Part shown: one piece after another, positions 56,343-64,000 of the stretch
How positions within the stretch are numbered: position 1 is the stretch's first letter
Layout: each line of letters opens with the position of its first letter
Source of the DNA: Catajapyx aquilonaris
Lineage: Eukaryota
Assembly (NCBI GenBank): GCA_000934665.2
Contig: KZ538154.1
Location: 1 to 64,000 of the forward strand
Reading direction: 5' to 3'
Length of the DNA stretch: 64,000 bases
Notes under the pieces: generated by a model
The model's input: only the letters and a program-made list of their open reading frames with translations
Told to the model about the DNA's origin: nothing
Databases searched by the model: none
Translations under genes and position numbers: made by a program

Positions 56343-59300
56343 ATGGCCCTTCCACCATACATTTTGGGTCCAAACCCATGGGCTGTGATGGCCCAGCAGC
56401 AGGCACAGTTAGCTGCAGCTGCTCATGCTCAAGCCCAGGCTCAAGCAGCCCATGCCCATGCCCAAGCTCAGGCACAGGCCCAAGCTCAAGCCCAGGCGCA
56501 GGTGCAAGCACAGTTGCAGGCGCAACTGCAAGCCCAAGCAGCGCAAAAACAAATTCAAGTGGAGACTCTTTCTGAGGAAAAATTGCAAGAAAAAGGTATT
56601 TAAAAAAAAATATTTCCTCATGACTTGGCATCTGACTGTATGAATGATACCATATTTTTGAAGTAGATTTGTGACTCTATTGGTGAATGTTTGCACATAT
56701 AAAAAATTGTCCACATGACATATAGCTTTTTTTCTTGGTTCTTCTTGCAGCTCGAAAATGGCAGCAGTTACAGTCAAAAAGATATGCAGAAAAGCGGAAG
56801 TTTGGCTTTGTTGATGCTCAGAAAGAAGAAATGCCTCCAGAGCACATTCGTAAGATCATTCGTGATCATGGTGACATGAGCAGCAGGAAGTATAGACACG
56901 ACAAACGTGTATATCTTGGGTAGGTACCATCTTGCTATTGCCCATTGTGTTTGATTCTAATCATGCAACTGTTATTTCAGTGCTTTGAAGTACATGCCCC
57001 ATGCAGTGATGAAACTTCTGGAGAATATGCCCATGCCGTGGGAACAGATCAGAGATGTCAAAGTTTTATACCACATCACTGGTGCCATCACTTTTGTGAA
57101 TGAAATTCCCTGGGGTATTGAACCTGTGTACATTGCTCAGTGGGGGTGAGTATTACCATTCTTCCTTTTTTTTAAAGAAATAAATAAATAAATAAATGGA
57201 TTATGTTAGAAGTCAAATTATTTTTGCTAGTTAAGTGTGTCAATTCAATAGTGGTTTATGTCTTCAGGGCAATGTGGATAATGATGAGACGTGAGAAGCG
57301 TGACCGGCGCCACTTCAAACGGATGCGATTTCCCCCCTTTGATGATGAAGAACCTCCACTGGACTACGCAGACAATGTCCTAGATGTGGAACCACTGGAG
57401 GCCATCCAGATGGATCTTGACAATGAGGAAGACAATGCAGTGAAGGAGTGGTTTTATGACCACAAGCCACTGGTTGAGAGCAAGTGAGTCCAGTGTGTGA
57501 TTCCATGATAAGAGCTTGTGTAAAGTTTTGCTTTTAATTTCCAGGCATGTGAATGGTCTGACATACCGCAAGTGGAATCTGACCTTACCACAGATGGCTA
57601 CGCTGTATCGCCTTGCAAATCAGTTGTTGACTGACTTGGTGGATGACAATTATTTCTACCTGTTCGATCTCAAGTCATTCTTTACGGCAAAGGCACTCAA
57701 CATGGCCATCCCAGGAGGACCAAAGTTCGAGCCTCTCATCAAAGATTCAAACCAAGGGTATGCATTCAAGAATTGCTTCTGTGTTGTGTAAAGTATCTGA
57801 ATATGCTGTGGTATCCTATGTGGATGCTTAATCACCTGTGATTTCTGAGATAACAGTACAGGAAAGACTGATGGTCTGGAATGCTGACTCCAAGGTTGCA
57901 GGGGAAGACACAGAAACAGTCACAAAGAGGAAAACTTAGCATTCCACTGGTGTGATTATGTTTAGTGGAACTTCCCTTCATAATTATGTAAGCTGCAACC
58001 TTGGAGGAGCAACCTTGCCTACAGCAAACCTCTCATATAGTCTGTTATATCATTTTTATTAATGCCTCAGCACAAGTTTAATATAAAATGTGTTGCATAT
58101 TTTTACAGAGACGAAGACTGGAATGAATTTAATGACATCAACAAGATCATCATCCGACAGCCAATTAGGACTGAATACAGGATTGCTTTTCCATACCTGT
58201 ACAACAACATGCCTCATTATGTACACCTGTCATGGTGAGTTGACGCTGGAAATTTTAATGCATCAAAGTTATCTAGAAATTCACACTAATGTTTTGCAAG
58301 AGGCTGTTGCCAGATAAAGAGCCTTTTGTACTAGCAGTGTGATAGAGAAATATCTGTGATGGCGTATTAGTTGACATGCTTGAAGACTGAATGCCAACTG
58401 CTGAGATTACTGACATTTTTTTATTGCATTAGTAAATTAATTTTCATTAAGGTCATTAAGGTTAACCATGCCCTGGTAACATTCTGGGACACCAGATGTC
58501 TTGAACAATGATTAGTGCATGTAATGGGCCGGTAGAGGTGACACCACATTTGCCACCAAGGAAAAGTCGCAGACTTTGAGCTCCTCCACATGTCTTGAAG
58601 TGGTGAGGGATGGCAATTGGGGGGTTGGTTATGGAATGTGGGAACCAAAATAGGACACTGATGGTGTTTGATTTGGGTGATATAGAGATGGCTAACTGAG
58701 AGAGCCACAGAAAGCCATCTTCAGCATTTGCTCCAGTGTCTCCTTCCCCCCTGAATGAGTAACATTGTAATATTATTTATTTTTAAAGATACTGAATTTT
58801 GTTGTTTGCAACTAGTCTCATAATAGCTTAAATTTTCTGTTATAAAAAGTCAATGTTTTTCAGGTACCACACCCCAAATGTGGTGTACATCAAGACGGAG
58901 GATCCAGATCTTCCAGCCTTCTATTTTGACCCACTGATCAACCCCATATCCCACCGTCATTCAGTAAAGGGCTCAGAGCCACTCCCTGATGATGATGAGG
59001 AGTTCGAGCTGCCTGAACAAGTGCAGCCTTTTCTGCAGGAGACACCTCTCTACACAGACAACACAGCCAATGGAATCTCCCTCTTGTGGGCCCCCAGGCC
59101 ATTCAATCTGAGGTCAGGCCGCACAAGGAGGGCGATTGACATCCCCTTGGTCAAGTCGTGGTACAGAGAACATTGCCCACCAGGACAGCCTGTCAAAGTC
59201 AGGGTCAGCTACCAGAAGTTGCTAAAGTACTACGTGCTGAATGCACTCAAGCACAGGCCACCTAAGCCACAGAAAAAGAGGTTAGTGCAATATCTACATC

Positions 59301-62300: not shown

Positions 62301-64000
62301 ACTGTGCATTGGTTGGAGTCACGTCGCTTTGCACCAATCCCATTCCCACCTCTGTCGTACAAGCATGACACCAAGCTGTTAATCCTGGCCCTTGAGAGGC
62401 TGAAGGAAGCATACAGGTATGGCGGGCTTACTAATTAATAAGGATGTAAAGATTTGTATTTTCCTCGTGGGGTTTGTGTGCCCACCTTGAGGCCACCACT
62501 GCTGATGGCTAATTTAACATAACAAATATTTTCTCTTCAAGTGTGAAGTCTCGCCTGAACCAGAGCCAGAGAGAGGAACTTGGCCTGATTGAGCAGGCAT
62601 ATGACAACCCGCATGAGGCCCTCTCCCGCATAAAGCGTCATCTTCTGACCCAGCGAGCCTTTAAGGAGGTTGGCATCGAGTTTATGGACCTCTACAGCCA
62701 TCTGATTCCCGTGTATGATGTTGAGCCCCTTGAGAAGATCACAGATGCATACTTGGACCAGTATTTGTGGTATGAGGCAGACAAAAGGCGGCTTTTCCCA
62801 CCCTGGGTCAAGCCCTCAGACACTGAGCCTCCACCTCTGCTAGTCTACAAGTGGTGCCAAGGTAAGTCCTATTTTCTGATGAGATATATTTTTTACATAT
62901 GCAATTGGGAGATTCACAGCATGCGGGTTTCATGCTGTATGTCGGAAGGGTCAAAGTGAATCTTATATAACTTTCTCTCCCCAGGCATCAACAACTTGCA
63001 AGATGTTTGGGACACTGTGGAAGGAGAGTGTAATGTGCTGCTTGAGTCCCGCTTTGAGAAGATGTATGAAAAGATTGATCTTACTCTACTCAACCGATTG
63101 CTTCGTCTCATTGTGGACCACAACATTGCTGACTACATGACAGCCAAGAACAATGTGGTCATCAACTACAAGGTGACTCAGAGTACAGATTGGAATTCTT
63201 AATGGTTTCCCGTCACGTGTTAATAGGGATGATCAAGAAGCATAATGTCATTACCCTAAATGTTACTATTGTGACGGTACAGTAATTTGGAAGTGCCGAG
63301 GAATGCCAGCCTGGAAGTTTTAAGTGGCATATGCAATCAGCTTCCAACACCGTATATTTTCCAGAGTTGATTGAATCATTTATTTGGTTATCTAGTCAAT
63401 TGCTTCAAGGTTTGAGACAACATGTTATGCAACGCTAATATAACTTCTATATATCTACAGGACATGAACCACACAAACAGCTATGGCATAATACGAGGTC
63501 TGCAGTTTGCCTCATTTGTGGTGCAGTATTATGGCTTGGTTTTGGACCTGCTTGTGCTTGGCCTTCAGAGGGCATCTGAAATGGCAGGCCCTCCTCAGAT
63601 GCCTAATGACTTCTTGACCTTCCAAGATGTGGCGACTGAGACTGCTCATCCCATCCGGTTGTATTGCCGCTACATTGACAGGATTCACATCTTTTTCCGG
63701 TAGGTGTGAGAGATCACTCACATGACTATAGTTAAGTTTTCTTCCATTGACAATAATCTGGACATCTGCCACTGATTTAGTGCCTGAATAGTTGGTGTGC
63801 TCGTGATATGTGTGTGAGAGAGAAGCCATTCATTTGAATCCCAAGTGACTTCTGTAGTTCTTTCGTCTGAATTCTGTAAGCATAAAATGCTTAAAGTAGA
63901 TGTTTATTTGTATTTTAGGTTCACAGCAGAGGAAGCAAGGGACCTCATCCAGCGCTATCTGACTGAGCATCCTGATCCAAACAATGAGAACATTGTAGGT
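56343..64000 (+). CDS. PRPF8: Pre-mRNA-processing-splicing factor 8 (U5 snRNP), runs off the 3' end of the window
   Basis: Exons approx. 56343-56595, 56751-56919, 56981-57145, 57268-57483, 57545-57757, 58110-58234, 58864-59280, 59926-60143, 60224-60450, 61206-61415, 61805-62128, 62253-62416, 62542-62861, 62985-63172, 63461-63699, 63919-end. Near-invariant Prp8 sequence ([64 protein letters not shown]). Confidence 0.99.
58281..58418 (+). ncRNA. Candidate box H/ACA snoRNA/scaRNA in a PRPF8 intron
   Basis: Hairpin 1 (TCACACT/AGTGTGA; TGCAAGAGGCT/AGCCTTTTGTA) with an internal pocket, H box AGAGAA at 58344-58349, hairpin 2 with a pocket, ACA at 58413-58415 plus 3 nt. Confidence 0.6.
59327..59460 (+). 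ncRNA. Box C/D guide RNA, SNORD94-like (predicted U6 Cm62), copy 1
   Basis: Terminal stem TAGC/GCTA, C box ATGATGA at 59332-59338, guide GTGCAGGGGTC at 59341-59351, D' CTGA at 59352-59355, D CTGA at 59453-59456. Confidence 0.8.
60653..60786 (+). ncRNA. Box C/D guide RNA, SNORD94-like (predicted U6 Cm62), copy 2
   Basis: Same architecture as copy 1: C box 60658-60664, D' 60678-60681, D 60779-60782; only two differences seen. Confidence 0.8.
63209..63352 (+). ncRNA. Candidate box H/ACA snoRNA/scaRNA in a PRPF8 intron
   Basis: Hairpin 1 (CCGTCAC/GTGACGG; TAGGGATGAT/GTCATTACCCTA), H box ACAGTA at 63279-63284, hairpin 2 (TGGAAG/CTTCCA; ATGCCA/TGGCAT), ACA at 63347-63349. Confidence 0.72.

Follow-up and report, generated by a model that had tools for sequence, protein, structure and literature searches.

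The 3' end of the 64-kb window (the whole stretch of 64,000 nucleotides of Catajapyx aquilonaris DNA analyzed here) is an animal PRPF8 gene, of which the window holds only the 5' half. The question raised by this locus is whether the larger PRPF8 introns each contain several small RNAs, or whether each guide RNA has an intron to itself. A sequence-only reading of the same DNA had proposed the former, with box C/D and box H/ACA RNAs mixed in a polycistronic cluster needing endonucleolytic separation. The explanation that we favor, with a probability of about 0.78, is that PRPF8 is an ordinary intronic snoRNA host with one predicted guide per intron, not clustered. The grounds given here are architecture, homology, common intron positions, and covariation, while what is said of expression, protein partners, and targets we infer.

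The host gene

The host was correctly named as PRPF8 (Prp8) from the sequence alone. When the full-length PRPF8 ORF of locus L001 (2383 aa) was compared with the window by tblastn, it aligned to the exons of a gene lying on the forward strand at positions 56343–64000 and continuing past the window end, and the exon at 58865–59278 matches the PROCN domain. The introns, all GT..AG with splice sites read from the sequence, are in the following positions: 57758–58108, 58235–58863, 59281–59925, 60144–60223, and 60451–61205, and then 61416–61804, 62129–62252, 62417–62541, 62862–62984, and 63173–63460. Intron positions are given hereafter by the preceding residue in L001 numbering. A tRNA-like repeat is located just 5' of the gene.

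Box C/D RNAs

Two intact copies of a putative SNORD94-like box C/D RNA, both of 134 nt and on the forward strand, were found where the sequence-only reading had placed them. Copy 1 (59327–59460) is in the intron after residue 518 (59281–59925), and copy 2 (60653–60786) is in the intron after residue 666 (60451–61205). Both carry boxes C, D', and D and a terminal stem of 4 bp, which in copy 1 are ATGATGA (59332–59338), CTGA (59352–59355), CTGA (59453–59456), and TAGC/GCTA, respectively. The antisense element of copy 1, GTGCAGGGGTC (59341–59351), lies directly 5' of D', and a hairpin with a bulged G is formed by 59358–59363 and 59372–59377. The pair is enclosed in a 242-nt direct repeat (59316–59557 and 60642–60883), and because the two units are 95% identical, the duplication appears to be recent. 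The copies differ at 2 of 134 positions inside the RNA, versus 9 of 108 for the flanking sequence that was duplicated with them (Fisher p 0.013), and no further copy of the repeat was found in the 64-kb window. A loose scan for C/D architecture gave seven matches in the window versus 2.0 per shuffle.

The kind of this RNA is named after its best Rfam match, SNORD94 (RF00613), which scored 22.3 bits with both window copies and 24.6 bits with the relative in locus L004, far below the gathering cut-off of 60 bits; scaled to the whole window, the match would have an E of ~0.6. It spans the C box, GCAGGGGT, the D' box, and the next hairpin. The layout is of the SNORD94 type, with C and D boxes joined by a terminal stem and a length of 134 nt against a 137-position model. 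GCAGGGGT is equally far from the C box in both, directly 5' of a D'-like box, and the likeness extends to the following hairpin, with its conserved CATG/TGT-type loop, and to the GAGA..TGC..CTGA region before the D box. The antisense element with its D' box, GTGCAGGGGTC plus CTGA, matches the consensus GCGCAGGGGTA plus CGGA in the same register, and the variants GTGCAGGGG and GCGTAGGGG and the consensus GCGCAGGGG differ solely by C/U at two positions. Unlike SNORD94, the window RNA has the canonical CTGA as D' box in place of the CGGA of the consensus, and its middle does not align, with a score of 22–25 bits in all against the 60-bit cut-off. The gene also differs, since human SNORD94 is hosted by PTCD3, while here PRPF8 holds two intact copies plus relics. 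SNORD94 (U94) is a vertebrate box C/D RNA. It is described as the guide for the 2'-O-methylation U6 Cm62 (PMC6894857, PMC7960923).

Relatives of the C/D RNA were found in PRPF8 introns of three other animal contigs, two of which share the intron of copy 2. Of five further PRPF8 loci examined that are animal-like and either genomic or intron-bearing, three have the guide, one of them in a different intron. A model derived solely from the two copies in the window (R1) was run against both strands of 902 kb and matched L004 and L005 (26.7 bits, E 2.7e-4) and L028 (19.3 bits, E 0.037), in every case on the PRPF8 sense strand and within a PRPF8 intron. The element of L008 was detected by a motif regular expression and is not recovered by the R1 search, even with the filters off. 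Both the L008 and L028 elements occupy the intron after residue 666, with an exon end identical to that of copy 2; these introns have only ~235 nt, the C/D RNA is their sole content, and it ends 69 nt (L008) or 55 nt (L028) from the intron end. In L025/L026 the same intron is present without the C/D RNA. The L004 relative aligned with SNORD94 over model positions 1–137 as its best Rfam match, and for the L028 element SNORD94 was not among the Rfam matches at E ≤ 10.

Lengths among copies and relatives range from 129 to 141 nt. L004, L008, and L028 share the layout of boxes and terminal stem, while their stem sequences differ. In the alignment, which like that of the H/ACA RNA below holds only three to four sequences and was fitted to the model structure, 45 of 46 cells are paired over 12 pairs, nine of which have changed on both sides, a value reached by 0 of 500 shuffles, with two such pairs at most in slid controls. 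Compensatory changes affect all four pairs of the terminal stem.

Beyond the intact guides, two further segments on the forward strand resemble the C/D RNA, the first being a decayed third copy and the second perhaps another. Positions 61565–61696, in the intron next after that of copy 2 (61416–61804), were found by R1 and pairwise alignment and are colinear with all 134 model positions, although the boxes are degenerate (TGAGAC for the C box and TTGA for the D box), the antisense element is disrupted, and the score is 12.9 bits (E 0.019 in a 6.3-kb search and 0.29 in a 94-kb search). Positions 58503–58583 (ATGATTA ... TTGA), in the intron of the first H/ACA RNA, are a possible truncated relic, marginal and not significant with 11.1 bits (E 0.063 and 0.94 in the same searches). 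All the C/D copies are sense-oriented and intronic.

Box H/ACA RNAs

The H/ACA architectures proposed at 58281 and 63209 are both present, and they are the top two among the 65 matches of a descriptor scanned over the whole window on both strands, with scores of 64 and 60, the next being 49. Sixty dinucleotide shuffles gave 0.1 matches scoring at least 60 per window, a figure to be read knowing that the gap limit of the descriptor was chosen after the first candidate had been seen. The descriptor is a crude detector, since on the sense strand it failed to detect the homologue in L004. Both RNAs have the generic layout of hairpin, hinge, hairpin, and tail, with a hinge of the type ANANNA and an ACA near the predicted 3' end, and their upper stems are 13–17 nt from the box, where ~14–16 nt is usual.

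H/ACA RNA 1 (a predicted 138 nt, forward strand, 58281–58418) starts 46 nt inside the intron that follows residue 379 (58235–58863); among the coding introns seen in L004 and L005, this one is the fourth. Its 5' hairpin is formed by a lower stem (58281–58287/58336–58342) and an upper stem (58295–58305/58320–58330), with the pocket strands 58288–58294 and 58331–58335 between them, and is followed by the H box AGAGAA (58344–58349). The 3' hairpin has its lower stem at 58356–58360/58406–58410 and the conserved strand AACTGCTGA at 58396–58404, and the ACA is at 58413–58415. The upper stem is 13 nt from the box in the 5' hairpin and 17 nt in the 3' hairpin (16 nt in L004); the latter is non-canonical in the window, where GGCGT/ATGCC can close the pocket. 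The RNA folds with a z of -4.73. No CAB box (UGAG) was found in the apical loops (58306–58319 and 58366–58390), and the sole TGAG of the RNA (58401–58404) is in the 3' pocket strand.

A model made from the window sequence of this RNA alone (R2) found full-length matches in the intron after residue 379 of both L004 (2405–2536, 43 bits, E 2.9e-6) and L005 (41.9 bits, E 5.3e-6). The strands ACTAGC and AACTGCTGA do not vary among the three sequences, and neither does their spacing of exactly 67 nt. All 65 cells of the 23 pairs in the fitted alignment are paired, with seven compensatory changes, as many as in none of 500 shuffles. Covariation of the stems together with conserved pocket strands was seen in RNA 1 only.

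Candidate 2 (143 nt, forward strand, 63210–63352) starts 37 nt into the intron 63173–63460 and was recognized from its architecture, with lower stems at 63210–63217/63270–63277 and 63288–63294/63340–63346, the H box ACAGTA at 63279–63284, the ACA at 63347–63349, and upper stem-to-box distances of 13 and 16 nt. Its fold is no better than that of shuffles (z of only -1.09), and no Rfam relative was found, nor any homologue in 80 loci. We regard it as a lineage-specific H/ACA candidate; for this RNA by itself, the explanation by chance or neutral structure is still a fair one, at about even odds. Homologues with compensatory changes were obtained from PRPF8 introns of other animals for the C/D RNA and for H/ACA RNA 1; for candidate 2, the loci compared offered no intron orthologous to its own.

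The fruit fly has an H/ACA RNA in the same host gene. As described, scaRNA:Prp8 (CR43600) is a box H/ACA RNA of the conserved fourth Prp8 intron with covarying stems, found in Diptera and Apis and not in Tribolium, and called newly evolved (Lu et al. 2014, Genome Biol 15:R7, PMC4053861). The intron after residue 379, as the fourth coding intron seen in L004 and L005, may correspond to that position. Read as its reverse complement, the published reverse primer has ACTGCTGA 9 nt before the ACA, against 8 nt in the window and L004, and aligns to 58397–58418 with a score of 22.5; among 400 random pieces the 95th percentile is 21.5 and the highest score 25.5, the comparison being limited to the primers. 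The published amplicon is 168 bp, versus 132–138 nt for the RNA here, and RNA 1 differs from scaRNA:Prp8 in having no CAB box in its apical loops. From the host gene, the RNA class, and the weak primer-level similarity, H/ACA RNA 1 is probably the counterpart of Drosophila scaRNA:Prp8.

Number of RNAs per intron

Of the segments thought to be structured without having boxes, only one is clearly so. At 57804 itself the fold is unremarkable (z -0.89), but a strong hairpin lies ~70 nt downstream in the same intron (57872–58015, forward strand, in 57758–58108), with -54.5 kcal/mol and a z of -5.11, a fold that none of 200 shuffles equaled. Within it is a perfect inverted repeat of 14 bp (57888–57901/57993–58006), extended by 6 bp past a 16-nt bulge; neither snoRNA boxes nor an Rfam match were found in it, nor an nhmmer relative in 80 loci. 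The segment at 59662 is marginal (z -1.89 for 59650–59770), and the other three behave like shuffles, namely 58538, which the possible C/D relic overlaps (sliding windows over 58450–58659, z -0.11 to +1.11), 60507 (z -0.46 for 60495–60610), and 60911 (z -0.57 for 60885–61030). The short introns, as had been claimed, held no box-bearing candidate in the C/D scan and no high-scoring H/ACA match.

What remains is one intact box-bearing RNA in each of four introns (58235–58863, 59281–59925, 60451–61205, and 63173–63460), and not several per intron. These RNAs begin 37–202 nt from the 5' splice site and end 108–465 nt from the 3' splice site. Since most of the extra segments fold like shuffles or are decayed copies, the locus follows the rule of one snoRNA per intron, which the sequence-only reading had ascribed to vertebrates. 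Its proposal of a multi-guide host mixing C/D and H/ACA RNAs holds, and PRPF8 introns of other animals supply homologues, with compensatory changes, for two of the three kinds of RNA.

Discussion

The reading of PRPF8 as a cluster, in which each larger intron has several small RNAs, guides together with other structured RNAs, that endonucleases must separate as they do in some insect hosts, draws on the C/D-related sequence at 58503–58583 and 61565–61696, on the hairpin at 57872–58015, and on introns of 351–755 nt, long for RNAs of 134–143 nt. The C/D-like pieces, however, have degenerate boxes and weak scores, most other extra segments fold like shuffles, and in L008 and L028 the C/D RNA is alone in its short intron. 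A second intact C/D or high-scoring H/ACA architecture was found in no intron, so the polycistronic reading fails, and we consider it highly improbable. It is also unlikely that a mobile element, or a retro-copy derived from a snoRNA, inserted twice into PRPF8 to give the 242-nt repeat, that the H/ACA-like hairpins are chance or neutral structures, and that no guide is functional. Such an origin would suit a repeat that carries ~100 nt of non-snoRNA flank, and the tRNA-like repeat just 5' of the gene; the frequency of loose C/D architectures and the poor fold of candidate 2 also speak for it. Against this, the window has no more copies, those present are all sense and intronic, and the substitutions between them avoid the RNA body. 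Moreover, PRPF8 introns of other taxa contain homologues, two of them in the orthologous intron, with compensatory changes and conserved guide strands.

If PRPF8 is, as we favor, a host with one guide per intron, splicing of its pre-mRNA would free each intron, box-bound snoRNP proteins would shield the 134–143-nt core, and exonucleases would trim the flanks, a route suggested by the general biology of intronic snoRNAs. The C/D RNA would direct fibrillarin to 2'-O-methylate U6 at the equivalent of human C62, a target predicted because the antisense element, immediately 5' of D', agrees with the SNORD94 consensus in both sequence and register; its pairing with U6 we presume from this identity and from the U6 sequence. 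Copy 2 would be in the ancestral intron, copy 1 would be a recent DNA-level duplicate with ~100 nt of flank, and the third copy would have decayed. A third guide-bearing intron would supply H/ACA RNA 1, with conserved guide-pocket strands and co-varying stems, most likely the counterpart of insect scaRNA:Prp8 and as such a pseudouridylation guide for snRNAs, and a fourth would hold the lineage-specific candidate.

This arrangement resembles canonical snoRNA hosts in the sense orientation, the single intact RNA per intron, the mixture of C/D and H/ACA RNAs, and the duplication into a neighboring intron followed by some decay. It departs from them in the distances to the 3' splice site, 108–465 nt, where the optimum for vertebrate C/D RNAs is ~70 nt, and in that the product of the host gene is a core protein of the spliceosome and a spliceosomal RNA is the predicted target of at least one guide. 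SnoRNAs are thought to be freely mobile among host genes, and these are mostly translation-related. No published account of PRPF8 as the host of a U6 methylation guide was found in our searches of the literature; for fly Prp8, scaRNA:Prp8 and mir-988 were found.

Taken jointly, these observations allow a tentative reading, which we put slightly short of even odds, in which PRPF8 is an ancient conserved host for spliceosomal-RNA guides. A SNORD94-type guide for U6 Cm62 would have been kept in its introns across several invertebrate lineages, shifting introns upon intron loss or duplication, and the H/ACA RNA that flies have as scaRNA:Prp8 would be much older than its description as newly evolved implies. 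A SNORD94-like RNA after residue 666 and an H/ACA RNA after residue 379 may serve as markers for annotating invertebrate genomes, in which these RNAs fall below the Rfam thresholds. The PRPF8 protein cradles U5 and U6 at the catalytic center, and the predicted targets would place a U6 guide, and probably also a pseudouridylation guide for snRNAs, inside the gene of that protein. If the joint reading is true, gene nesting would couple, at the level of transcription, the making of the core protein of the U5 snRNP to the modification of snRNAs, U6 among them. The retention of the C/D guide within a single host gene is a hint of selection for expressing a spliceosome protein together with snRNA modification.

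The PRPF8 host gene and its surroundings

Exon-by-exon mapping of the 2383-aa open reading frame of L001, a cDNA-like metagenome contig whose residue numbering is used throughout, showed that the first ~1175 residues of PRPF8 are encoded at 56343–64000 (+). The exon at 58865–59278 matches the PROCN domain. The introns that concern us, all on the plus strand, are those at 57758–58108, 58235–58863 (after residue 379), 59281–59925 (after residue 518), 60451–61205 (after residue 666), 61416–61804, and 63173–63460 (after residue 1068).

A minus-strand gene with an RluA-type pseudouridine synthase domain (53471–55203) is oriented divergently to PRPF8, at a distance of about 1.1 kb from the PRPF8 start codon. 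The PseudoU_synth_2 match (E 1e-23) falls on the ORF at 53471–53917, and the N-terminal ORF (53959–55203) is long and repeat-bearing, with no relatives of similar length. Immediately 5' of PRPF8 exon 1, the interval 55843–56160 contains an imperfect inverted repeat of 39 nt (55843–55881/55980–56018) and, beside it, a tRNA-derived-like stretch on the minus strand, in which ARAGORN detected no tRNA. Further upstream are an ARMC5-like gene with ARM and BTB domains (47667–51136), an LPGAT1-like acyltransferase ORF (42940–43992), and the ORFs 18840–19874 (−) and 25598–27220 (+), whose Methuselah_N ectodomains (E 1e-14 and 4e-11, respectively) point to methuselah-like GPCR paralogues.

A SNORD94-like box C/D RNA in two copies

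At the curated Rfam thresholds, no match was obtained in the whole window. When 56000–64000 was searched by E-value, the best matches at 59326–59402 and 60652–60728 were to SNORD94 (22.3 bits, E 0.081; cut-off 60 bits). Both sites are within a 242-nt direct repeat, 95% identical between its copies and with no third copy in the 64 kb. A loose C/D descriptor gave seven hits in the window versus 2.0 ± 1.5 in 100 shuffles and was uninformative by itself.

In each copy of the C/D RNA (copy 1, 59327–59460; copy 2, 60653–60786), TAGC and GCTA form the terminal stem. The C box ATGATGA and a two-base spacer are followed by the antisense element GTGCAGGGGTC, which abuts a D' box (CTGA); next come a hairpin of 6 bp with a bulged G and the D box (CTGA). 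The RNA is 134 nt long, versus 137 positions in the SNORD94 model, and in the cmscan alignment its agreement with the consensus covers the C box, GCAGGGGT, the D'-like box, and the two strands of the hairpin. SNORD94 (U94) is described as the guide for 2'-O-methylation of U6 C62 (PMC6894857; PMC7960923). Since the antisense element is that of the SNORD94 consensus, in the same register to D', the predicted target should be the same U6 nucleotide, the C62 equivalent. The pairing itself is a prediction; a motif search found no U6 gene in the window or in the 80 comparison loci.

Two other layouts were considered and rejected. With a second D box, at 59408, the RNA would shorten to ~85 nt, but its terminal stem would sit 4 nt off both boxes. 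As for a U6 guide upstream of the D box, no match to U6 was seen, and the element there is similar to the stretch before the D box in the SNORD94 consensus. A conserved GCAC(A) just 5' of the D box (59446–59450) complements the GTGC that opens the U6 antisense element (59341–59346), and this complementarity is common to the window and to the loci L008 (CTGCAC versus GTGCAG) and L028; an internal helix masking the guide is one possible reading, coincidence the other.

In the literature searched on PRPF8/Prp8 snoRNA hosting and SNORD94, there was no report of a U6 guide hosted in PRPF8. Deryusheva and Gall (2013; PMC3884663) mention the fly U6 methylation guides mgU6-47 and mgU6-68, with no host gene named in the sections available, and the available portions of the human PRPF8 literature make no mention of a nested snoRNA.

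Relatives of the C/D RNA in other PRPF8 loci

The comparison set consisted of 80 metagenome loci with a PRPF8 exon, mostly from distant eukaryotes, with a handful that are animal-like. Among the 80 loci, a regular expression for the C box plus antisense element matched only L008 and L028, in each case on the strand of PRPF8. The element occupies the residue-666 intron in both, the exon ending where it does for copy 2 in the window, and the host introns are only about 235 nt long. A further relative, weak by nhmmer (E 0.12), was present in L004 and L005, which are near-identical and were counted as one taxon. Its element, GCGTAGGGGTC followed by CTGA, is in the intron after residue ~275, and this taxon has no intron at residue 666.

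The model R1, built from the two window copies only and searched over 902 kb on both strands, matched L004/L005 (26.7 bits, E 2.7e-4) and L028 (19.3 bits, E 0.037) and missed L008 even with filters off. In Rfam, SNORD94 (24.6 bits) is also the best match of the L004 element, aligned end to end and including the region before the D box; for the L028 element, SNORD94 was absent at E ≤ 10. In L025/L026 the residue-666 intron is present without such a C/D RNA, and L009 is intronless at that position. Thus, among the genomic, animal-like PRPF8 loci covering the region, the C/D RNA was found in three of the five other taxa (L004/L005, L008, and L028).

Because MAFFT and RNAalifold misaligned the RNAs, model-based alignments were used instead. 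In that of the two window copies, L004, and L028, 45 of 46 cells are paired and nine of 12 pairs are changed on both sides, a level reached by none of 500 shuffles, with at most two pairs in slid controls; being model-fitted, this alignment leans towards the structure used for fitting. A pattern scan of prokaryote contigs (18 specified bases) returned 25 matches, all bacterial or archaeal, versus ~17 expected by chance, and viral contigs returned none.

Copy 2 is in the intron shared with other taxa, which is presumably the ancestral one. Copy 1 is two introns upstream, and the duplication took in 11 nt on its 5' side and 97 nt on its 3' side. Inside the RNA the copies differ at two positions out of 134, and in the flanks at nine out of 108 (Fisher p 0.013), a pattern that fits constraint on the RNA, though the duplication is recent. 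R1 also aligned 61565–61696 colinearly over 134 of 134 positions (12.9 bits; E 0.019 in a 6.3-kb search, 0.29 in a 94-kb search). Its boxes are degenerate and its antisense element is disrupted, so we read it as a decayed third copy. A fourth C/D-like piece, at 58503–58583, is a marginal R1 match.

A box H/ACA RNA in the intron after residue 379

The box H/ACA RNA at 58281–58418 (H/ACA 1) folds with a z-score of −4.73. Its 5' hairpin consists of a 7-bp lower stem, a pocket formed by AATGTTT and CTAGC, and an upper stem of 11 bp; 13 nt separate the upper stem from the H box, AGAGAA. The 3' hairpin has a 5-bp lower stem (GTGAT/ATTAC) ending 2 nt before the ACA, with the strand AACTGCTGA above it; in the window sequence, this 3' pocket can be closed by GGCGT/ATGCC and is not canonical.

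The model R2, built from this sequence alone, gave full-length matches in two of the 80 loci, L004 2405–2536 (43 bits, E 2.9e-6) and L005 8648–8779 (41.9 bits), in the intron after residue 379 as in the window; by nhmmer, the match to L005 was weak (E 1.4). All three sequences contain ACTAGC and ACTGCTGA unchanged, with the same spacing of 67 nt. Pairing holds in 65 of 65 cells of 23 pairs, and seven pairs are changed on both sides, which was reached by none of 500 shuffles and compares with at most one in slid controls.

By eye, H/ACA-like pieces were also seen in the residue-379 introns of L008 (2782–3053, 272 nt) and L002 (154–413, 260 nt), neither of which R2 finds. The L008 piece is a 5' hairpin followed by AGAGTA, and that of L002 contains TGCTGAGATT and, further on, ACATTTT. 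In those compact genes, these introns rank first or near the top by length.

[quoted passage not shown] 2014; PMC4053861). In L004/L005, the fourth coding intron is the one after residue 379. The reverse complement of the scaRNA:Prp8 reverse primer has ACTGCTGA shortly before the ACA, like H/ACA 1, with an alignment score barely above random. Unlike the CAB-box-bearing scaRNA:Prp8, H/ACA 1 shows no UGAG in its apical loops. H/ACA 1 is probably the counterpart of scaRNA:Prp8.

H/ACA scans and the second candidate

Rfam searches of the small H/ACA regions gave only chance-level matches (SNORD34, 18.9 bits; snopsi28S-3316, 12.8 bits; snoR99, 13.6 bits). A detector based on minimum free energy folds found nothing and missed both candidates too, because such folds close the pockets. 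It was replaced by a stem descriptor (lower stem, pocket, and upper stem 13–16 nt from ANANNA or ACA), whose gap limit was set after the first candidate had been seen. Of its 65 hits on both strands of the window, the two H/ACA sites called from the sequence ranked first and second (scores 64 and 60; next, 49). In 60 dinucleotide shuffles there were 0.1 hits per window at scores of at least 60 and 0.03 at 64 or more; at scores of at least 50, the shuffles gave more hits than the window itself did (3.3 versus 2), and one shuffle had a hit scoring 75. Applied to the other PRPF8 loci, the descriptor gave no sense-strand hit in the orthologous introns, though R2 finds L004/L005 there.

The second candidate, H/ACA 2 (63210–63352), has a good architecture, with lower stems of 8 and 7 bp, the H box ACAGTA, an ACA that directly follows the stem, and upper stems 13 and 16 nt from the boxes. 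Against it count a small 5' pocket (3 + 4 nt) and a z-score of −1.09. It has no match in Rfam and no relative in the 80 loci, either with its model R3 or by nhmmer. Of the 65 loci with both flanking exons, only L034 is gapped at the residue-1068 position (73 nt). We give H/ACA 2 roughly even odds of being a real guide.

Other structured segments

The sequence-only reading had also listed further structured segments, and their folding was assessed with a sliding 120-nt z-score scan and targeted folds. Most were not borne out: 60495–60610 (z −0.46), 60885–61030 (−0.57), 57795–57880 (−0.89), 59650–59770 (−1.89, marginal), and 58600–58735 (−2.16), and windows over 58538 were between −0.11 and +1.11. 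A dip at 58600–58719 (z −4.7 on the plus and −3.8 on the minus strand) is explained by a small hairpin, AGATGGCT/AGCCATCT, at 58686–58720, which scores on both strands and so behaves as a plain palindrome.

A clear exception is a hairpin at 57872–58015 (+), in the intron 57758–58108 (−54.5 kcal/mol, z −5.11, a stability that none of 200 shuffles matched). Its stem comprises a perfect 14-bp inverted repeat and, past a bulge of 16 nt, another 6 bp; on the 3' arm, two tandem copies of the motif GCAACCTTG are at 57995 and 58009. The hairpin lacks boxes, matches nothing in Rfam, and by nhmmer has no relative in the other loci. A pre-miRNA reading was rejected on account of the bulge in the stem and the absent Rfam match.

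PRPF8 as a guide RNA host

The box-bearing elements called from the sequence were correctly placed, and two of them are now backed by conservation. The accompanying proposal, that single introns carry several RNAs which must be separated endonucleolytically, found no support. As judged from sequence and its conservation, PRPF8 is here a conventional host with one guide per intron, the expression, protein partners, and targets of the guides being predicted. What is notable is the identity of the host, PRPF8, and the apparent retention there of a U6 Cm62-type guide in several animals, together with a probable deep homologue of the insect scaRNA:Prp8 in the same gene.
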